This document shows, piece after piece, positions 3,201-47,126 of a stretch of DNA of 64,000 nucleotides (within the stretch, counting starts at the first letter, position 1; each line of letters begins with the position of its first letter). Below the pieces are notes generated by a model that saw only the letters and a program-made list of their open reading frames with translations, was not told the DNA's origin and did no database searches. Source of the stretch: Eledone cirrhosa (Eukaryota); the NCBI GenBank assembly GCA_964016885.1, contig OZ024741.1, positions 226,610,001 through 226,674,000 on the forward strand. The letters are read 5' to 3'. The translations under genes and the position numbers were made by a program.

Positions 3201-3789
3201 TTTTAATTTATATATATATGTACATAAATATACATATATATATATATACATATGTGTGTGTGTGGGGGTGGGGGGTATTCTGCTATCATTGGATTCACCA
3301 GATATCTTCCTTCACTCGTTCCCAATTCTGAAATATCATCCTGAAATACTAAATTAAGATGAGTAATAAAGCAGAAATAGAGCTGCCAACTTCAATATAC
3401 TTCATAATTTCTTCGACTATGGCTTCTAGCAAACGTCAGTTAATTCCTCTTTCAAGCTTTCTCGAGAAATACTTACATATAAGGAGAGATTCTACCCTCC
3501 GGACGATCTTCTCTCGGTTTAGGTAATATATGTATATTATATCGTCATTTTGTATATTTCGAAATACATTATATAATTTGTCCTTCCATAATTAAAGATG
3601 CTTCTTTTTATTTGTTTTTCATAATTGTATGGTTTAGTTAGGGAAAGAACACAGCTTATGGCTATTTTCATTGATTCTGAAGGAATTTTTCTTAATCCAA
3701 ATATTTATGTTTGCAGCAGATGAACTCCAGTATATGTCCAAATGGTTTTGTTTAATCAGACATCGGATTACTTCTACCATCTAATAACG

Positions 3790-9309: not shown

Positions 9310-9359
<50 letters not shown>

Positions 9360-9500
9360 GTTTAGACAACAGAACGTGTGTATAAGATACAGGCGTCCTG
9401 TCGAATTTATGACAGTATTTAATTAGATCAATGCTTGAAAGCAGAGCCGTTATATGAAACAAAAATAAAGAGCGCTTACATCATCAATTAATCTTTATTT

Positions 9501-9545
9501 GCTGACAGTGTTTCATCGTTGCATAATTGCAGGACTCATCAGAGC
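9501..9545 (-). ncRNA. Type I hammerhead ribozyme
   Basis: gct-ctgatga-gtcctgcaattatgcaacgat-gaaac-act-gtc-agc. Confidence 0.8.
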
Positions 9546-10552
9546 GTTATAAAGAGGTTTTAGATCAATAGTATAAACTCTACCGACCTATATCACAAGA
9601 ACGATCCATATGTAGCACAGAGGACTAAGAAGAGTGGGGTGCTTGGACGACGCGTCACCGCTAAATCAGTTACAATAATTAAAGATAAGGAAAAATAAAA
9701 GATAAGGAAATTAAAGATAAGAGATAAAACGTAAAGGGTTGAGTCTATAAGTAAGGATGAAATAAAGATAACAATAAAGTGATGATAATATAAGAAAATA
9801 TAAAAAAATAATAAAAAATAATAAAAATAAAAATGAGAATAAAATATGAGAATAAAAATAGGAGGTGATAAAAATAAAGATAAATATAAAAATGAAACAT
9901 AAAAGATAACACATTATATAGAGGGCAACTATCTCTCCGCCTACAATTACAGTTGCGGGTTGTGTCATTCAACATGCGTCGAAACGAGTGGCTGTTTGCA
10001 CTATCCCGAAGCATTGTTGCCATACTTGTTGCCATACTGTGATGGATACATGGAATTCCACTATATGATCGCTTTATCTGGCTCCCGCTATATCTGACTC
10101 TGCCTACATCATTCACTTTCGTTGATATTGTTCTTAAACTGTCACCTCTGAAATCCTTTACTGTCTACAACTACATTTATTTGCATTTATTTGCATTTAT
10201 TTGCATTTATTTGCATTGCTTATATAATGTGTTATCTTTTATGTTTCATTTTTATTTTTATCTTTGTTTTTATCACCTCCTATTTTTATTCTCATATTTT
10301 ATTCTCATTTTTATTTTTATTATTTTTTATTATTTTTTTATATTTTCTTATATTATCATCACTTTATTGTTATCTTTTATTTTTCCTTATCTTTAATTAT
10401 TGTAACTGATTTTGGTCTTATATGTATCGGCTTCTAGCAGTGACGCGTCGTCCAAGCACCCCACTCTTCTTAGTCCCCTGTGCTACATATGGATCGTTCT
10501 TGTGATATAGGTCGGTAGAGTTTATACTAGTGATCTAATTCCTCTTTATAAC

Positions 10553-10597
10553 GCTCTGATGAGTCCTGCAATTATGCAAGGATGAAACACTGTCAGA
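10553..10597 (+). ncRNA. Type I hammerhead ribozyme (second arm)
   Basis: gct-ctgatga-gtcctgcaattatgcaaggat-gaaac-act-gtc-aga. Confidence 0.78.
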
Positions 10598-10785
10598 TTA
10601 ATTGATGATGTAAGCGCTCTTTGTTTTTGTTTCATATATATATATATATATATATAGGAACCAGTAAGACCCCGACAGCTGAGCTCAAGCCGTTTCGACG
10701 GCTAATTCTGGACTAAAAAAAAAATAAAAGTATTGAGTACTTTGGTGCGTTATGGTCCACCTGGTTCCTTACCACATTTCCTTCG

Positions 10786-16685: not shown

Positions 16686-17060
16686 AAGAACTTAATATAC
16701 GGATGTAGAGTAAAAAACCCCAACTCTGAACACCTTTACATAGGGGCCACATTAACGAGCTTTAAAGGCCGATGGTATAACCATCGCCATTCCTTTAATA
16801 GGGAGGACAAAAGAAAAAGTACGGCTCTTTCCGAACTGATCTGGAAGCTCAAGCTGGACAAGACCCCGTACTCTCTGCTATGGTCCAAAATCAGGAAAGT
16901 ACCACCTGATAAAGTGGGATCTGGCATCTGCAAACTATGTCTGAGCGAGACCCTCGAGATACTCAGAGGTGGAAGCAGCCTGATAAACCTCAGGACTGAC
17001 TTCTTCGGGACATGTAGACACCTCAGGGCCGGGACCGTCCTCAAGCTATATGGACAGTAA
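16686..17060 (+). pseudogene. GIY-YIG endonuclease C-terminal fragment of a PLE
   Basis: NLIYGC..LYIGAT..FKGRWYNH..STALSELIWKLK..CKLCLSE..INLRTD..CRH; antisense twin at about 16365-16680. Confidence 0.9.
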
Positions 17061-17500
17061 CAACACATTGGGATGGGAACTTCCCTCAAGCTATAGGGAC
17101 TTCTCCGGAACATGTAGACATCTCAGGGCCGGGACCCTCCTTAAGCTATATAGACAGTAACAACACATTAAGATGGGAACTCCCCTCCAGCTAGAGGGAC
17201 TTCTCCGGGACATGTATACACCTCAGGGCCGGGACCTTCCTTAAGCTATATGGACAGTAACAACACATTGGGATGGGAACTCCCCTCCAGCTATAGGGAC
17301 TTCTCCGGGACATGTAGACACCTCAGGGCCGGGACCTTCCTCAAGCTATATGGACAGTAACAACACATTAGGATGGGAACTTCCCTCCAGCTATAGGGAC
17401 TTCTCCGGGACATGTAGACACCTCAGGGCCGGGACCTTCCTCAAGCTATATGGACAATAACAACACATTGGGATGGGAACTTCCCTCTAGCTACTAGGAC
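17001..17500 (+). repeat. Tandem array, 5 x 100 bp
   Basis: ttctycggracatgtagacacctcagggccgggacc.. recurs at 17001, 17101, 17201, 17301 and 17401. Confidence 0.95.
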
Positions 17501-19632: not shown

Positions 19633-19637
<5 letters not shown>

Positions 19638-19868
19638 AAAGAATAGAGGTGTAACACACAAGTTATTATATATTGGTAAACGGAATAGAAAATGCTGACA
19701 AATTGTTCACAGTTGAAAAATGGTTTAATTAGGAATAAAAGAGTATTAGTGATTGTATGGGTTAGTATTCAGTTGTGGTTTTAAGTTTTAAAGTTTCTAC
19801 CGGTTGCGCATTTCTAAATGCTTTTCAAAAATAATTTTGAGATAGAGTGTCCGTGTTGTTTGCTCTGA

Positions 19869-19872
<4 letters not shown>
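19633..19872 (-). mobile_element. Solo 3' fragment of the PLE family at 42219-46640
   Basis: Near-identical to 42219-42458; embedded in (TA)n. Confidence 0.9.
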
Positions 19873-34116: not shown

Positions 34117-34164
34117 TAGAGATTTACATAAATGCATACAAACACACCCACACATTTATATATA

Positions 34165-36052
34165 TATACCGACTCCCACTCCTACCACTCCACCGCACCA
34201 TCCTCCGCCTCTTACGACGCCTCCACACATCTTCCTATCCTCATCCCTCCTTCAAACGCGCACGCAATCTCCGCACCCCCTCGTCCGTACCCCCCCCCCC
34301 CCCCGGATCCCTTCCCTGCTCCAGGTCTCGTTGCCACACTTGCCCCCCAATCACCAACACCACCCCCTTCCAACGGCCACTCTCTCTCTGTCCGGCACGC
34401 CTTCCGCTGCACCTCCTCCAACCTAGTCTATGGACTTCGCTGCACGGAGTTCAGCGCAACATACGTCGGGCAGACTGGACGTCGCCTGGCGGACCGTTTC
34501 ATTGTGTACCTCCGCGATATTCGTCCCGACGGGAGTCCCGCATCGCCTGCCACTTTGGCTCCCCTGGGCATTCCGCCCACCACCTCACAGTCTGTAGCCT
34601 ACTCAAATGCCATGGAACACCCGCCACCCGACTCATGGCCTCAACTCCCCACCCCTATTCCTTTAGCCTTCGACCAGCCTGTCCCCCCACACACATATCT
34701 CCCACTAACACCACTAACACCACTAACACACTCCTCCTTTTCACCGCCCCACCCCCTTGGTCCACCCCACAGCTAACAATACTAACACCCCCACCCCACC
34801 CGCCACCCGCCCCAATTAACAATACTAACATCCCCACCCCTCCCCCTATCACGCACACACCCACCTGTATATATATACACGCACTACACTATCCACACAC
34901 CCTATAACCACTACTAACCCTCACCCACACATCCACTCCAACCACCCCACAACTAGTATCACTAACATCCCCCGACCACATGCACACGAACACACACCTT
35001 CACACCTACATACACCACCCACTCCACACACCCAACCCCCACTAACCCCCACTTACTCACCCGCATTCAACCCTTTCCCCCACCACCAGTATACTAACAC
35101 CCACTAACACCCCTTTACCACACACACACTCATCCAAACACGCACACACACACCAGTACACTACACTCCCTCCTCCGTCCCCAGCACCTTTTCTCTCCCT
35201 CTCCCTCTACCCGCTCCACCTATACCCGTTCACACACACACATCCCACTAACACCTCTACTAATACACACCCCATCCCCCCACATCACCAACTTGACCCT
35301 GTGACCACTTCCTGTTGCGCACGAACCCCACATCTCTCCACTTCCGACCACCACAACCAATGGATTCCACACAACCGGTCATCGTTCCAGCTATCCACTC
35401 CATAACATGAACATATCCAGTACTCATCGCACACTCCACGGAACTTACCTTACGAACTTACCCACGGTCATACACTCACATTTTTTTCGAACCACGCCAC
35501 CTACACCCACACCACGTATAAACACCAACACACACGTGCGTACCCCCACATATACACACTCAGCCTCCATCTACACGCACGCACACACCGACCTACACCA
35601 CACCCCACGCACACACCTTTTCCTGAACATGGAACCTCGTTCTTCCCCCAACTCTCACATTCACATACACACGCACACACACACGTACACCTATACACAT
35701 ACACAAACACCACCTTCAGCCCTCCCCGCTCAGACCCCCCGCTTCCCCCTCCCAAATCCACCCGCCACCACCCCTACACGCCTCACACCCTTCCTCCACT
35801 TGTTTATCTTTATGTTTATTTTTATTTGTACCCCTTCCACCGTTTTTCCTCCCTTTTCTCCCCCCTCTTTTTTCTAAATGTCTCTCCACCACTGCCCCAC
35901 ACACCCTCGGAACTCTCTTCCTACCCACTTTTCTCTTGTTGAAGGGCTTATGCCCGAAACGTCGTTCCCCACCCACCTCACTCTCAAGACCGTCAACCTA
36001 ATAAACTTTTATTTGTACTGCCTCTCTGTTTTTGTTCCCGTACAAGTTTTCA
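34165..36052 (+). mobile_element. Decayed Neptune-like PLE 3' part with C-rich UTR
   Basis: TDSHSY, FRCTSSNLVYGLRC..YVGQTGRRLADRF; degenerate hammerhead ttgttga-agggcttatgccc-gaaac-gtc at 35936-35963. Confidence 0.85.
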
Positions 36053-38819: not shown

Positions 38820-39630
38820 TATTTACAGTAAAAAGTGACAACTACAATGACGGCAATAATAAAAAAGGGTGGGGGACAAAAGGAAAGAAAGTATAGGGGA
38901 AATATAGAGAAAAAAGAGAGAAAGAAAGAAGATAAAGAACGGGAAGGGTAAGGGGTGGCAAGAGTTCTGGTGTCGCAGAAGAGACGGGAGTGTGAAGAGG
39001 AGGGTGATTGGGCTTTGGGCCTAGGGCAAGAGGGCAGAAGTGCTGCACCCCGTGGACAAGACGGCAAAAGCATTCCCGCGGACGATGGCCAGTGACACCC
39101 GCTGCAACAGCCACCCAATCTTGCGGGGCTCCCTCCTCAGATGGGCCACCGACGCTCCGATCTTGCGGAGGAGCTCGGCAGTACGGGGTCCAAGTACGGC
39201 TGAAGTCTCGTCGGTGTCCGGTGCGAAGAGGAGTTGAGTAAGGTGGAGAATGAATTGGACGATGGATTAGGCGAGGAGAGAATGGCAAGTTAAGGAGACT
39301 TTGGGGAGATCTCTGTCAGAAAACGGATTTAAGAGAGGGTGGAACGGAGGGTCGCCCGCATGAGATGGCGAGAGGAGCGGGTAAGGATTGATTCAGTGGT
39401 GGGAACTGTGTAGGAAGGGGGGGGTTGAGGCGAAACCTGGGGAACGAGGTGGTGGTGAAGACCGGCTGAGAAATGTGACGTCATTGTCATAGCGGATGTT
39501 GATGAAGTGGAGTTTGAGGAGATGCAAAGAAGACTGGATGAAAGTGGGGGGAAAGAGTGGAGGAAACGTTTCGGGGGAAATGGGGCTGGTGGAGGAAATA
39601 TTTGTGATTGGGCATGATACTCTTTCTAAC
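38820..39630 (-). mobile_element. Probable 5' region of a Neptune-like PLE, decayed
   Basis: Minus strand gives YDNDVTFLSR..HHHLVP.GFRL-like text resembling PLE N-termini; C-rich like 34165-36052. Confidence 0.45.
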
Positions 39631-39860: not shown

Positions 39861-39956
39861 TAGTAACTGATAATTGTGTTATTTAAATAATGAATTAAAC
39901 ATTTCTGTAATTTCAACATTAAACTTTAAAACTCGATTATTACTCTAGACTGAATC

Positions 39957-40023
<67 letters not shown>

Positions 40024-40030
40024 AACAAAC

Positions 40031-40065
<35 letters not shown>

Positions 40066-40088
40066 TATATATACATATATATAAATAC

Positions 40089-40159
<71 letters not shown>

Positions 40160-40168
<9 letters not shown>

Positions 40169-42169
40169 CGTAAAATAAGAAAATTAAAAAAAAAATATTT
40201 TTAAAAATTAACATACTTACTTAAATTTTCACTCCAACTAATTAGTTTCTGCAATGGGATAAAGACAGTTACGTAATGAACTGTTGAGAATTTCATTGCG
40301 TCATCAGGGAGGTCTATTCTCAGCCAAGTCTCCAGGCAATGCGCGGACACTGGGGACTCGTATAAAAATGATAATAATTCGGTAAATGGAACAGCTATCG
40401 AGGACTGGATTCCAGGTACTGAAAATTCTCACTGCTACTGGTCATATGGCCGATTCTAAAGAATCAATCACGTGACACAGAGGCTAGTCAGTAGGAATGG
40501 GATGGTAAGATGACAGACGCCTACTAACACCCCCAAAAAATTTAGAAGTGGTTTTGGCAAGTTTGCTCGACAAATCAGTGATTTGGAGATAAATATAGAT
40601 AATTTAATATATCTACTAACATAAGCGCACAGATGTACGCTAATGCCAGCAAATACACAGGTTATGTCATAGTACCTAGGTGGTTCAATGCAGGAGGATG
40701 CAGAACAATAATATAAAAGACGTAAAATAAGAAAATTTAAAAAAAAATTTTTTTTAAATTAACTTACTTACTTAAATTTTCACTCCAACTAATTAGTTTC
40801 TGCAATGGGATAAAGACAGTTACGTAATGAACTGTTGAGAATTTCATTGCGTCATCAGGGAGGTCTATTCTCAGCCAAGTCTCCAGGCAATGCGCGGACA
40901 CTGGGGACTCATATAAAAATGATAATAATTCGGTAAATGGAACAGCTATCGAGGACTGGATTCCAGGTACTGAAAATTCTCACTGCTACTGGTCATATGG
41001 CCGATTCTAAAGAATCAATCACGTGACACAGAGGCTAGTCAGTAGGAATGGGATGGTAAGATGACAGACGCCTACTAACACCCCCCAAAAATTTAGAAGT
41101 GGTTTTGGCAGGTTTGCTCGACAAATCAGTGATTTGGAGATAAATATAGATAATTTAATATATCTACTAACATAAGCGCACAGATGTACGCTAATGCCAG
41201 CAAATACACAGGTTATATTTAGAATCGGCCATATGACCAGTAGCAGTGAGAATTTTCAGCACCTGGAATCCAGTCCTCGATAGCTGTTCCATTTACCGAA
41301 TTATTATCATTTTTATATGAGTCCCCAGTGTCCGCGCATTGCCTGGAGACTTGGCTGAGAATAGACCTCCCTGATGACGCAATGAAATTCTCAACAGTTC
41401 ATTACGTAACTGTCTTTATCCCATTGCAGAAACTAATTAGTTGGAGTGAAAATTTAAGTAAGTTAATTTTTAAAAAATTTTTTTTTAAATTTTCTTATTT
41501 CACGTCTTTTATATTATTGTTCTGCATCCTCCTGCATTGAACCACCTAGGTACCATGACATAACCTGTGTATTTGCTGGCATTAGCGTACATCTGTGCGC
41601 TTATGTTAGTAGATATATTAAATTATCTATATTTATCTCCAAATCACTGATTTGTCGAGCAAACCTGCCAAAACCACTTCTAAATTTTTTGGGGGTGTTA
41701 GTAGGCGTCTGTCATCTTACCATCCCATTCCTACTGACTAGCCTCTGTGTCACGTGATTGATTCTTTAGAATCGGCCATATGACCAGTAGCAGTGAGAAT
41801 TTTCAGTACCTGGAATCCAGTCCTCGATAGCTGTTCCATTTACCGAATTATCATTTTTATATGAGTCCCCAGTGTCCGCACATTGCCTGGAGACTTGGCT
41901 GAGAATAGACCTTCCTGATGACGCAATGAAATTCTCAACAGTTCATTACGTAACTGTCTTTATCCCATTGCAGAAACTAATTAGTTGGAGTGAAAATTTA
42001 AGTAAGTTAATTTTTAAAAAAATTTTTTTTAAATTTTCTTATTTCACGTCTTTTATATTATTGTTCTGCATCCTCCTGCATTGAACCACCTAGGTACCAT
42101 GACATAACCTGTGTATTTGCTGGCATTAGCGTACATCTGTGCGCTTATGTTAGTAGATATATTAAATTA

Positions 42170-42175
<6 letters not shown>
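40160..42175. mobile_element. Head-to-head tandem arrays of a ~550 bp non-coding hammerhead unit
   Basis: About 1.9 minus copies (40160-41216) then about 1.75 plus copies (41218-42175); long (TA)n on both sides. Confidence 0.93.
41367..41446 (+). ncRNA. Hammerhead with extended stem II (copies at 41911-41990 +, 40232-40311 -, 40783-40862 -)
   Basis: ctcc-ctgatga-cgcaatg[..acagtt..aactgt..]cattgca-gaaac-taatta-gtt-ggag. Confidence 0.85.
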
Positions 42176-42218
<43 letters not shown>

Positions 42219-42223
<5 letters not shown>

Positions 42224-45200
42224 AAAGAATAGAGGTGTAACACACAAGTTATTATATATTGGTAAACGGAATAGAAAATGCTGACAAATTGTTCACAGTT
42301 GAAAAATGGTTTAATTAGGAATAAAAGAGTATTAGTGATTGTATGGGTTAGTATTCGGTTGTGGTTTTAAGTTTTTAAGTTTTTACCGGTTGCGCATTTC
42401 TAAATGCTTTTCAAAAATAATTTTGAGATAGAGTGTCCGTGCTGTTTGCTCTGATCTGATTAGTTTTGGGAATTCTACCTGTTTTTATGTTAAAAAAATT
42501 GGCTCCAGCGTTATTTTTGTGTTGCAAAAATGCTTGTGGTCAAAACAATTTTGATTGGTCGGTAGAGGTCATGTGGATAAAAAATTGGTTTTGCGCCAAG
42601 ATTGAGAAATGACTCTTTCACAACAAATATGTGTGTGTGTGTGTGTAGTAAGGTATTCGATGCTGCGACAATAAAGTGCCGCTTGGTTCCTACACTATGA
42701 ATCGACTTTTCAAACGGATTACACCTCCAATAACCCGTTCATAAAAATAGGAAAACCCATAACTGAACCGCACAACAACTTCTCAAATCCCCAAGCCTCA
42801 AACAAACGAAGAAGGAAGCACCACACCGAAGATGAACTTCCCAACCTCGCTACCATAAGAAGGAACAAAAACCCAAGAAATCATCTCCCCCAGAATGACA
42901 TTTACAACTTTCCCCCTTCAAGGAGACACCATACCAAATCACTCAACTACTACGCGGATTCCTCATCGTCAAACATAGGGAAAAGATACCACCGCCATGA
43001 TAGATGCAACAACTTCCCCGTCTCAAGGGGACAGCAAGGTAATTACCATTTTCTCAACTCTCACTTCCACAATGCACAACAAACCCATACCACACGATAC
43101 AACCAACAACGTAGGCCACTTATAACACCACAATACAACAGGGCACATAGAAACACACACCCATACTCGCAGTACAAGTACACCCCATTCAATCTACAAC
43201 CACCAACCCGAACCACATTTTACAACAACAAGAAATATAACAAACACAGGAGACCACTTAACATCAGCAGACAACCCCTCTACCCCAACCATTTTTTAGA
43301 CACAGCACACAGATATAGGCAAACAAAATAACACAAGACAGGGAGGAGAAACCGATAGTAATAAAAATTATCAATCTTACTAGTGCAGAACCAACACCCA
43401 ACCTTATCAACTTACTCTCCAAAGCTCTTAAATTCACACCGACCCCACTACGTCCTAACTACTATGAAATGAAGGAAGACATCACAGACTTCTGTAGAAA
43501 GTTACGACTTAGTGAACAACTATTCGACCAGTACAATGAGGATGAATCATTAGCCAGAAATAGAAGCAATTACACCCCTTCAAAAGGTAGAAATAAAATC
43601 CTGGACGAATTCTGTGAACACATCACAAACTTCCCTTACCAACACTTGCACAGACAAAAACACAAGCCAAACCTCAACAAGAAAGAATGGGAAGAATTAA
43701 ATAGATTAAAAACCGACAGAACCATTACAATTAAAGAGGCTAATAAAGGGAGTACAGTAGTCCTAATGGAGACAGAATTCTATATCAACTTAGCGCTCTC
43801 CACTCTGGAAAACGAAACATACTACGAAAAGGCTGAACACTACAATCAACAGAAAATTATGAGAAACCTAAAAACTCTAATCAACCAATACAAAGAAGGA
43901 CTCACTAACAAGGAATTCAGCTTCATCACAGACTTCACAAGTAAATCCAGCCTTTTCTACGGTATCCCTAAAGTACATAAAAGCGAATCAATCAGTAAGG
44001 CATGCAAGGAAGCCACAGACATAGTCATCAATGTCCCCTCACCCAATGATCTTAAATTAAGACCTATAATAGCAGGCCCCGCTTGCGAAACGCACCGTCT
44101 TAGCAACTTCATTGATACCCTTCTCAAACCCTTCCTCAAGCACATCAAAAGCTATATAAGGGACGACCTAGATATGCTCAATCACCTCCCTAATATGCCA
44201 CTTTCTGAACAAACCCTACTAGTGACGTTCGATGTAGTCAACCTATACTCCAACATCCCCCACAACCTAGGAATAGAAGCTATCCAATTCTGGCTGGATA
44301 ATTTCCACAATGAACTCCCACAACGCATCAAAAAAGAATTCGTGATAGAGGGACTCAAATTTATCTTGGAGAACAATTACTTCGTTTTCAATAACAAACC
44401 CTACAGGCAGAAATCTGGGACCGCTATGGGAACGAAAACAGCCCCTACTTATGCCAACCTAGTCATGGGATACCTGGAAATCACCCTCTACACTAAGGTC
44501 CTAAACAAATTTGGAAACACCCTCCACTTACACATTGAAAGGAACTGGAAGCGATATCTAGATGACTGCTTCATCCTTTGGCACGAAAACATCGAAAAAC
44601 TTAAAGAATTTCACACCCTTATAAATGGGCTCAACACAAATATTAACTTCACGATGGAATACAGCCATCAACAACTCCCCTTCCTCGACATCCTCATTAA
44701 GATCCATAACAAAAAAATAGAAACAGACATATACTACAAGCCCACAGACTCCAAGCAATACCTCTCCTTCAACTCTTGCCACCCTAGACACGTTAAAATT
44801 AATATTCCCTACAACTTAGCCAAGAGAATCTGTACTATAGTCTCCAATAAAAACATCTGCTACTTACGGCTACAAGAACTAAAGGACACACTCATAGGCA
44901 GGGACTACCCTGCATCACTAATTGACAATGGAATCCAACGTGCCCTAAAACTCAGTACCCAGGACCTTAGACACCCTAAAGTAAATCAACCAAAACTAAA
45001 AGCTCTTCCATACATCTCCACACACAACCCCCTCAACAATGAGGCCTTTGACACCATCCTCCAGAACATCCCTGTATTGAAAAAGGACCATAGAATGAAC
45101 CAAATTCTACGAACACACGATATCATAAAGAGCAAAAGACAATCCAAGTCAATGAAAAACATCTTAACACATGCCAAAGTACTGCCAACCACAACAACGA

Positions 45201-45758
45201 AACCCACAGTAAAAAAATGCGATAGACCCAACTGTGGCATTTGCATCAACCTAATAGAGGGTTCGGAATTCTATTTCAAAGATGGACAACGTTTTATAGT
45301 AAAACACAATTTCACATGTGCATCGGAAAATCTAATATATGTATTAACTTGTTCAGGTTGTCGAGAACAATACATAGGCCAGACCAAAAACAGCCTCCGC
45401 CAACGCATGACTGTCCATAGATCCCAAATTAAAATACGGGAATACAGGAAAATACCACTGAGTGAACACATTGATACCTGTGCCGCCCAAAATCATCCCA
45501 ACTTCAGAATCTTTCCCCTCTACAAATTTAAAGATAATGCCACCCACACCCAGCGCATCAGCAAGGAATCTTACTTCATTAACAAATACGGACCCCGCCT
45601 AAACACTTCTCCCTAAGACGAACCCACAACATACATACGTCAACATACATACCTACATCAGCACACATCTCTACCCACATATAAACACAATGACACACGT
45701 AAACACACATGCTCTATGGTGCAATACAAAAAAATATATGTGCATATATATGTATGTA

Positions 45759-45795
<37 letters not shown>

Positions 45796-46084
45796 AATAT
45801 ATGTGTGTGTGTGTGTGTGTATATATATAGTGAATATCATTTCACACCTTTTATTGTTAAGATTTTCGATGTTCTATTAAGAGAACCGATTTTACTGAAA
45901 AAATCGAATAATGTACACCATTTTACCAGGGGGAAAAAATACTGGTCCCCCCCACCCACACACACATATATACACAAACACACGCGTACATCAACATACA
46001 AAGAGACTTATACACACACACACGCACTTCTCCGTATAAGACAAAAGCTGAAAAATATCCTTTGACCTTCGAATGACTCTGCTG

Positions 46085-46169
<85 letters not shown>

Positions 46170-46229
46170 ATCTTAATAGCCATTTGACACACATCGCTGC
46201 TGGCTATTGTCGCAGCATCGAATACCTTA

Positions 46230-46269
<40 letters not shown>

Positions 46270-46640
46270 TTGTTGTGAAAGAGTCATTTCTCAATCTTGG
46301 CGCAAAACCAATTTTTTATCCACATGACCTCTACCGACCAATCAAAATTGTTTTGACCACAAGCATTTTTGCAACACAAAAATAACGCTGGAGCCAATTT
46401 TTTTAACATAAAAACAGGTAGAATTCCCAAAACTAATCAGATCAGAGCAAACAGCACGGACACTCTATCTCAAAATTATTTTTGAAAAGCATTTAGAAAT
46501 GCGCAACCGGTAAAAACTTAAAAACTTAAAACCACAACCGAATACTAACCCATACAATTACTAATACTCTTTTATTCCTAATTAAACCATTTTTCAACTG
46601 TGAACAATTTGTCAGCATTTTTTATTCCGTTTACCAATAT
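42219..46640 (+). mobile_element. Neptune-like PLE with ~430 bp inverted ends
   Basis: About 42252-42673 is the reverse complement of 46206-46640; RT-EN ORF lies between; (TA)n on both sides. Confidence 0.93.
43319..45616 (+). CDS. PLE reverse transcriptase plus GIY-YIG endonuclease (open frame; first ATG at 43469)
   Basis: IINL..LSKALKFTPTP, KEANKGS, FYGIPKVHK, RPII, FDVVNLYSNI, GTAMG, RYLDD, FLD, KPTD, CDRPNCGIC, NLIY..QYIGQT..LRQRMTVH; no stops. Confidence 0.93.
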   Translation, partial: ANKITQDREEKPIVIKIINLTSAEPTPNLINLLSKALKFTPTPLRPNYYEMKEDITDFCRKLRLSEQLFDQYNEDESLARNRSNYTPSKGRNKILDEFCEHITNFPYQHLHRQKHKPNLNKKEWEELNRLKTDRTITIKEANKGSTVVLMETEFYINLALSTLENETYYEKAEHYNQQKIMRNLKTLINQYKEGLTNKEFSFITDFTSKSSLFYGIPKVHKSESISKACKEATDIVINVPSPNDLKLRPIIAGPACETHRLSNFIDTLLKPFLKHIKSYIRDDLDMLNHLPNMPLSEQTLLVTFDVVNLYSNIPHNLGIEAIQFWLDNFHNELPQRIKKEFVIEGLKFILENNYFVFNNKPYRQKSGTAMGTKTAPTYANLVMGYLEITLYTKVLNKFGNTLHLHIERNWKRYLDDCFILWHENIEKLKEFHTLINGLNTNINFTMEYSHQQLPFLDILIKIHNKKIETDIYYKPTDSKQYLSFNSCHPRHVKINIPYNLAKRICTIVSNKNICYLRLQELKDTLIGRDYPASLIDNGIQRALKLSTQDLRHPKVNQPKLKALPYISTHNPLNNEAFDTILQNIPVLKKDHRMNQILRTHDIIKSKRQSKSMKNILTHAKVLPTTTTKPTVKKCDRPNCGICINLIEGSEFYFKDGQRFIVKHNFTCASENLIYVLTCSGCREQYIGQTKNSLRQRMTVHRSQIKIREYRKIPLSEHIDTCAAQNHPNFRIFPLYKFKDNATHTQRISKESYFINKYGPRLNTSP

Positions 46641-46851: not shown

Positions 46852-47126
46852 AAGATGAAATCGAAAATGCAACTGGAGTCTTATTTTTTAAAAATATATA
46901 TATTTATTTGGTTCCTTTACCGGTTTCGCAGTTCTTCTGCTTTTCAAAAGTAGAGTTGAGATGGAGGGTCTGTGGTTTTTCTCACATCAGATGTGAGAAA
47001 AATCACAGACCCTCCATCTCAACTATACTTTTGAAAAGCAGAAGAACTGCGAAACCGTTAAAGGAACCAAATAAATATATATATATTTTTTTAAATAAGA
47101 CTCCACTTGCATTTTCATTTCATCTG
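46852..47126. repeat. Near-perfect 275 bp palindrome carrying two hammerheads (46915-46950 -, 47028-47063 +)
   Basis: Centre ctcacatc-a-gatgtgag; motif ctt-ttgaaaa-gcagaagaactgc-gaaac-cg-gta-aag. Confidence 0.88.

Follow-up and report, generated by a model that had tools for sequence, protein, structure and literature searches.

Head-to-head hammerhead retrozymes in (TA)n repeats of Eledone cirrhosa carry two fixed ends that likely record copying by a borrowed Penelope-like enzyme

In the 64,000-nucleotide stretch of Eledone cirrhosa DNA analysed here (the window), the locus at 40160–42180 is composed of two inverted arms built from a repeated unit of 544–551 nt, as delimited by repeat search and self-BLAST (Table 1). 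The arms are divergent, with their 5′ ends meeting at 41217 and both 3′ ends facing outward into (TA)n, and the unit copies differ from one another by indels. An earlier note on this DNA had described nearly two minus copies facing nearly two plus copies, almost identical and flanked by (TA)n; this agrees with the ~1.9 and ~1.8 units that we identified, which are 97–99% alike in the repeat search and self-BLAST, and with the entry of both 3′ ends into (TA)n. Two cleavage sites per arm, one unit apart, had also been claimed, and the predicted sites are indeed 544 nt apart in the right arm and 551 nt apart in the left. The absence of a credible protein was likewise borne out, as the two 96-aa stop-to-stop frames tested gave no Pfam match at E ≤ 0.1. 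The element has no LTR. The RT + GIY-YIG frame is absent from the element and in this locus occurs only in a separate neighbour. A read-through transcript is predicted to fold back with 830 cross-arm pairs. Unit positions are numbered from window position 41503.

Table 1. Features of the retrozyme locus and the adjoining insertion (window coordinates).
Feature	Position	Strand	Basis
Left (TA)n/(CA)n target tract	39955..40161	.	sequence, tandem-repeat search
Left arm, ~1.9 units; 3′ end = start site A, unit position ~12, window ~40162	40160..41216	-	
Type I hammerhead fold, CUGAUGA at -40307; predicted cleavage after 40236	40232..40311	-	script scan
Type I hammerhead fold, CUGAUGA at -40858; predicted cleavage after 40787	40783..40862	-	script scan
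Central head-to-head junction: 1 extra A between unit positions 58 (left) and 263 (right)	41217		
Right arm, ~1.8 units; 3′ end = start site B, unit position ~134	41218..42180	+	
Type I hammerhead fold, CUGAUGA at +41371; predicted cleavage after 41442; order: stem I, CUGAUGA, C·A + 6-bp stem II with inner hairpin, GAAA, palindromic stem/loop III, GUU	41367..41446	+	script scan
Predicted 544-nt cleavage-to-cleavage monomer	41443..41986	+	
GTAAGT, which we take to be splice-donor-like; kept in sister families	41458..41463	+	
Possible internal promoter (weak): conserved GTCACGTGA (presumably E-box-like), TATA-like run near 41855, possible start near 41882	41749..41882	+	
Type I hammerhead fold, CUGAUGA at +41915, one G·U in stem I; predicted cleavage after 41986	41911..41990	+	
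122-nt 'tail' between start sites A and B; on right arm only	42058..42180	+	
Right (TA)n tract, common to retrozyme locus and neighbouring PLE	42176..42219	.	
Coding Penelope-like element (PLE), separate insertion; RT + GIY-YIG frame 43319–45616	42220..46640	+	

Each arm features two consecutive type I hammerhead units, so that the four hammerheads proposed in the earlier note were all recovered by the script scan, which located a single further hammerhead fold in the 64-kb window (+10556). The conserved core (C3 U4 G5 A6 N7 G8 A9, G12 A13 A14 A15, U16 H17) is complete, with U at H17. Two points have to be added to the earlier description: pair 10.1–11.1 at the base of stem II is a non-standard C·A mismatch, next to a G-C pair, and the cleavage triplet is GUU. 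Both are invariant in 16 of 16 aligned hammerhead variants and are therefore family features rather than signs of decay. Loop III and stem III together form a perfect 12-nt palindrome, for which a self-duplex of −10.8 kcal/mol is predicted, and the copy at 41915 carries a C>U change in stem I that gives a G·U pair. A mispair at 10.1–11.1 is used as a rejection criterion in the accessible text of PMC3088659, in which U·U variants are active, and active U·U variants are also described from axolotl (PMC7229834). Eight of nine Xenopus retrozyme dimers showed no cleavage in vitro (bioRxiv 10.64898/2026.07.22.740005). A genome pattern search for hammerheads with the C·A mismatch and another loop III returned five matches against three in controls, which is the level of chance.

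Across the 16 aligned hammerheads, 97.3% of 256 pairing cells were paired, compared with 35–53% in slid controls, scores that kinship of the sequences inflates in a set that was hand-picked to span families. Stem II was paired throughout (100%), with both-sided changes in two of its six pairs, and its inner hairpin showed both-sided changes in three of four pairs; these compensatory changes uphold the extra stem II hairpin noticed earlier. Stem III is invariant and so uninformative on covariation, and stem I is variable on one side only. Taken by itself, the 111-nt hammerhead region shows no better folding than its shuffles (z 0.06), and the active hammerhead fold is predicted to lie 2.8 kcal/mol above the local minimum. 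The monomer at 41443..41986 folds better than its shuffles, with z values of −4.75 as a linear molecule and −5.9 as a circle, the latter against 40 shuffles. No Rfam family reached its gathering score in the window, and relaxation to E ≤ 5 gave only microsatellite-driven miRNA matches.

The earlier note had presented the locus as its best candidate for a new element. It is instead a typical member of a family of ~2,500 insertions in a 3.0-Gb genome, belonging to a published class. An exact 27-nt pattern for the 3′ half of the hammerhead gave 4,266 genome matches and its reversed control 0; the first 100 matches fall in 58 places, which suggests the number of insertions that we estimate. Sister families, 70–82% alike over the whole unit, account for 8,473 further matches, and in several of them (L131, L150, L154 and L160) a C(UUCG)G cap closes the inner hairpin of stem II. 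A similarity search with the unit returned 1,792 genome candidates, 40 of which were scored. The set used below consists of 84 loci including that of the window, 27 of them top similarity matches and 57 taken by position along contig C1, after 16 overlapping entries were dropped from 100 collected. Arrays reach ~5 units, and the head-to-head layout is the commonest, being present in at least 32 of the 57 positional loci. A close relative of the unit was identified in a second organism (three contigs of unrecorded kind), and among five sequence runs matching the unit none was recorded as RNA. Judged from its sequence, the element is a real, high-copy, non-coding non-LTR retrozyme with predicted hammerheads.

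In the 84 loci, 3′ ends are localised to two positions of the unit, A at ~12 and B at ~134, which are 122 nt apart and both UAUA-like. Every classifiable head-to-head insertion joined one A arm to one B arm (47/47). This total comprises 42 of 42 pairs from the 84 loci (27 AB and 15 BA; p = 4.5e-13 against a 50:50 expectation), including 32 of 32 in the 57-locus positional subset, and 5 of 5 pairs from 12 further loci. The same combination was found in 6 of 6 pairs from 20 sister-family loci. A further 46 ends in the 84 loci were single or had an unclassified partner, and inspection of the unclassified partners by eye revealed no A+A or B+B pair. The (TA)n is set off from the element by a (CT)n run at 10 of 60 B ends and 0 of 70 A ends, compared with 8 of 836 background runs. 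As the RNA reads UCU at B, we infer that the RT stuttered at initiation. Short direct repeats of B-site (or 5′-end) sequence occur at junctions in L083 (2786–2830), L028 (2531–2590) and L012 (2219–2250), which suggests repeated aborted initiation. The hallmarks of a PLE passenger, an inverted 5′ copy and a tail at one end, are thus present; any target-site duplication would be masked by the (TA)n. The fixed two-point ends likely record copying by a borrowed Penelope-like enzyme that started on both sides of a cut TA-repeat tract. The earlier note had suggested a non-autonomous retrozyme, (TA)n as the target, copies made on both strands and the involvement of a PLE enzyme, and each of these gains support from the family-wide data.

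Near-identical inverted arms between microsatellites could also be expected from a fold-back artefact of the assembly or from a local satellite rearranged by recombination. The two arms have different fixed ends and arm-specific variants, and the same layout recurs in the sister families as well as at dozens of loci scattered over the genome. The dispersed loci, the A+B ends and the arm-specific variants refute this explanation, to which we give a next to negligible chance.

Comparison of the arms identifies what was probably copied. The arms of one locus differ at 162 of 12,998 sites (1.2%, 35 loci), and tandem units differ at 184 of 18,231 (1.0%, 49 loci). Divergence from other loci has a median of 4.8%, and that from the nearest locus is 0.9%. 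The partner arm is closer than the median other locus in 33 of 35 loci and closer than the nearest in only 8 of 35. In the 28 testable loci an average of 8.5% of other arms are closer than an arm's own partner, which is in turn closer than ~91% of them. Since the nearest locus is surpassed so seldom, a common source for the two arms rests on this rank and on rare variants. Among 76 multi-segment loci, the latter were present in all covering units 19 times (11 of these across both arms), in some units four times and 164 times in a single unit. Their presence in all covering units is what repeated reading of one monomer would be expected to leave. Based on rank and rare variants, both arms of an insertion would derive from the same source locus.

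The window locus itself refines this. Both units of its right arm show two rare T>C changes and the loss of 4 nt, states that are absent from the left arm, which argues against one template molecule, and another rare change is common to all four units. The best fit to this locus is that its arms represent two sibling monomers from one source. Among 37 testable loci, only L077 showed one more rare arm-specific state.

In the 39 pairs that could be mapped (3 of the 42 were unmapped), 62 of 78 arms cross the predicted cleavage site seamlessly and 31 exceed one unit. Only 2 of 78 5′ ends lie near the site, with no pile-up there, so the template is not usually a cut linear monomer. The central junctions comprise 14 that overlap, 7 that are blunt, 7 with 1–10 extra bases and 11 with longer gaps, which are mostly mapping gaps in A/T tracts. 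At the centre of L010 we identified a 61-nt filler, which corresponds to the 3′ end of another repeat also present in its flank and was rejected as a partner. From its motif we take this filler to be LINE-like; a genome search with it returned no match.

The junctions also bear on whether the inverted arm could have arisen by self-priming or fold-back on an antisense template, with the tail produced by endonuclease trimming of the intermediate. Such models are in print for coding PLEs (PMC3846280, PMC8557442), and two loci (L069 and L092) have palindromic junctions with both arms starting at the same position, as this explanation would have it. The arms of L042, L074 and L090, however, share almost no sequence, so that neither can have been copied from the other, and most junctions join unrelated positions. 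The arms in the window carry different variants and the template-like (CT)n stutter is confined to B ends. We consider fold-back very improbable.

A closer rival retains the Penelope-type double priming and places it on uncut linear multimers, with the hammerhead weak or active elsewhere and the arrays regrowing by RT jumps or DNA duplication. The non-consensus hammerhead core would fit this, as would the dominance of uncut RNA for an anole PLE in vitro, for which cleavage was not needed and uncut RNA was the main substrate (PMC11167929). Start sites of the anole PLE were alike on both strands, which weighs against the mechanism proposed below. Seven of 100 5′ ends fall at unit positions 379–383 (p ~0.03), downstream of the TATA-like run, where transcription may begin; this hints at occasional copying of uncut linear transcripts. 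An equally large cluster lies at 343–347, within AT-rich microhomology. Copying of linear multimers, however, predicts in-register unit-specific variants in both arms, and these were seen once compared with the 19 cases that involve all units. Tandem units differ by the 1.0% given above, whereas subfamilies differ by 3–10%. No scar marks the unit boundaries, and the fold is kept with compensation across the sister families despite their divergence. A copy of a linear transcript would also lose the promoter upstream of its start, so that arrays would shrink with each generation unless more-than-unit cDNA were regenerated, which favours circles; regeneration of this kind has been proposed for PLEs (PMC4209133). 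Overall, we regard uncut linear multimers as an unlikely template, while giving them more weight than any other alternative considered here.

The coding PLE next to the retrozyme is near-intact. Its 765-aa RT + GIY-YIG frame contains the CX4CxxC linker of the Neptune/Nematis type; in the accessible text of PMC8557442 a CX2-5CxxC linker is assigned to Neptune/Nematis and tied to (TA)n targeting. The layout of this PLE is the same as that of the retrozyme, with an inverted end copy (42220–42673) and a 36-nt tail. Self-BLAST detected no homology between this PLE and the retrozyme unit, and no canonical hammerhead was identified in it by the standard or a relaxed scan. The tail of its family matches exactly at 3,583 places in the genome, and 15 of 24 tail-anchored loci have an inverted partner end. 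This partner was the short end in 15 of 15, in a tail-anchored sample that cannot see short+short pairs, of which L019 may be one. Other PLE-type families in the genome have tails of ~40–105 nt. The few named homologues of the neighbour's protein are bivalve-associated records. Many arms of its family start at ~46437–46446 in window numbering, likely the transcription start, and a solo end copy with tail lies at 19634–19872. About 4–5 of the 84 retrozyme loci share a TA tract with a member of the neighbour's family; given the abundance of this family and its identical target, we do not take adjacency as evidence of partnership.

The search for a partner enzyme covered 50 GIY-YIG loci (30 + 20) of 10,597 candidates, in which no coding PLE with a unit-homologous end was found. 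Two of the loci contain pieces similar to the unit, antisense in L118 and ~1.9 kb downstream of the stop in L225, which have the appearance of separate insertions and not of PLE ends. At L063 (3078–3090) a coding PLE is joined head-to-tail to a retrozyme 5′ end, ~9 nt short of the PLE's own end, as could result from a nested insertion with deletion or from an RT switch between two RNAs. The earlier note had named one finding that would overturn its interpretation, that the unit is the UTR of a coding PLE; 83 of 84 retrozyme loci and 50 of 50 GIY-YIG loci gave no sign of this. In a related form, the unit would be the terminal repeat (pLTR) of an unsampled coding PLE and the insertions its truncated copies. 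The match of the layout to PLE ends, the join in L063 and the sampling of 50 among 10,597 GIY-YIG candidates speak for it. Against this, the units have no upstream sequence in common and are preceded by a further unit, the opposite arm or unrelated flanking DNA, their 5′ ends are spread across the unit, and the L063 join is one case in 84, involving a PLE family with unrelated ends of its own. We judge this origin improbable, if marginally less so than fold-back.

Based on these observations, we propose, with a probability of roughly 0.7, that a non-LTR retrozyme is written into (TA)n by a borrowed PLE RT-endonuclease that primes from both DNA ends, at two fixed positions of RNA templates that are probably circular monomers. 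Tandem units would be transcribed from the internal promoter, and the hammerheads, probably acting as dimers via the palindromic stem III, are predicted to cut this RNA to monomers of 544–551 nt that are ligated to circles. The enzyme would then cut both strands of (TA)n, and each 3′-OH would anneal to a UAUA-like site, always A for one end and B for the other, in keeping with the A+B pattern observed. Each RT would circle its template for up to several units, and host end-joining would unite the two cDNAs centrally, where we observed blunt, microhomology and filler junctions. The tail of PLEs is a published signature that marks two RT start sites (PMC11167929; PMC8557442). More tentatively, and at somewhat less than even odds, PLE integration in general may be an obligately asymmetric double priming, in which a dimeric enzyme cuts a palindromic TA target on both strands and starts one cDNA at A and the second at B, on hammerhead-made circles of one source locus, the two circles possibly being held together by palindromic loop III.

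The retrozyme class is already known, as are the one-sided tail and inverted copies of coding PLEs. Animal non-LTR retrozymes, as described in the accessible text of PMC7229834 and bioRxiv 10.64898/2026.07.22.740005, likewise consist of non-coding tandem units of low GC with one type I hammerhead each, and they share the thousands of copies, a palindromic loop III suited to dimeric cleavage and co-occurrence with PLEs; the unit described here falls within their 51–972 bp range. They are presented there as head-to-tail arrays, whereas the family analysed here forms inverted insertions with fixed starts and a tail, features not reported in the accessible text of either source ('inverted' is absent from the main text of PMC7229834). 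Mobilisation by PLEs was proposed for them from co-occurrence and pLTR homology; here we found no homologous pLTR in the 50 GIY-YIG loci and a PLE-type footprint instead. RNA circles have been demonstrated for published animal retrozymes; for the present element they are a prediction.

Endonuclease PLEs (Neptune/Nematis, Poseidon and Naiad; PMC8557442, PMC3846280, PMC11167929) likewise show an inverted copy, a tail at one end, 5′ truncation and (TA)n targeting, and two internal RT start sites downstream of the hammerhead are described for them. The retrozyme differs from these in the lack of an ORF, in a tail of 122 nt rather than 30–40 nt and in its multi-unit arms; the strict A+B pairing is counted here, whereas the accessible text of these papers places the tail 'often' at one end. 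Non-autonomous Chlamys PLEs of green algae, such as MRC1, are likewise non-coding passengers and inserted as multicopy head-to-tail arrays, but their 3′ ends resemble those of autonomous partners and the clade is without canonical hammerheads (PMC8557442). The open-access literature that we searched, on hammerheads with GUU and stem II mismatches and on twin priming in PLEs, head-to-head and dimer mechanisms since 2022, cephalopod hammerheads, retrozyme insertion and newer work on PLE mechanism, contained no retrozyme with PLE-type ends and no strict A+B rule. Twin priming of L1 (listed in the abstract of PMC2837659) is comparable in that two target ends prime RT and the resulting head-to-head junction shows microhomology. 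Its second site is chosen opportunistically, and on one linear RNA the two arms have no overlap. In contrast, both sites here are fixed and internal, and a given sequence is often represented several times in the arms.

PLEs were regarded as a strong candidate for retrozyme mobilisation in 2020 (Cervera and de la Pena, PMC7229834), and a 2026 preprint describes the insertion mechanism as still to be worked out (Li, Clavereau and Pollet, bioRxiv 10.64898/2026.07.22.740005). For the inverted copies and one-sided tail of PLEs, three different proposals are in print. A protein-free passenger with a tail, a one-A-one-B rule and rare variants traceable unit by unit ties the questions of retrozyme insertion and PLE copying together, and its insertion footprint yields predictions that can be tested in an existing in vitro PLE system. 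If correct, asymmetric double priming would account at once for the tail of PLEs, for head-to-head copies and for the arrays in which animal retrozymes occur in tandem, and the family would be the first genomic proof that PLE enzymes insert retrozymes. With more than 12,000 copies, the family also offers a natural hammerhead variant that has GUU and, at the base of stem II, C·A; long fold-back RNA could come from about half of its insertions.

The window contains further repeats. An unrelated head-to-head element in (TA)n at 9357–10635 has a minimal type I hammerhead in each arm, at +10556 and in the inverted copy near 9540; one of its arms has a ~105-nt tail, and there are 285 candidates in the genome. 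One locus of this family (L173) has a GIY-YIG-like piece upstream, so the element may be the end of a coding PLE. L181, a 3.6-kb repeat of this second hammerhead family, proved to be a local duplication with no PLE frame. In L222 (5400–5950) a tandem hammerhead-like fold, with two copies 459 nt apart, lies downstream of a PLE frame. Frames resembling a decayed PLE endonuclease region occur in the window at 34132–34776 (+) and 38842–39625 (−), and the one scanned gave no Pfam match. A short inverted pair at 46880–47100 represents the end of another PLE family and resembles the 3′ ends in L115, L119 and L122, and a 100-bp tandem repeat spans 16998–17498 in five copies with 93% matches.
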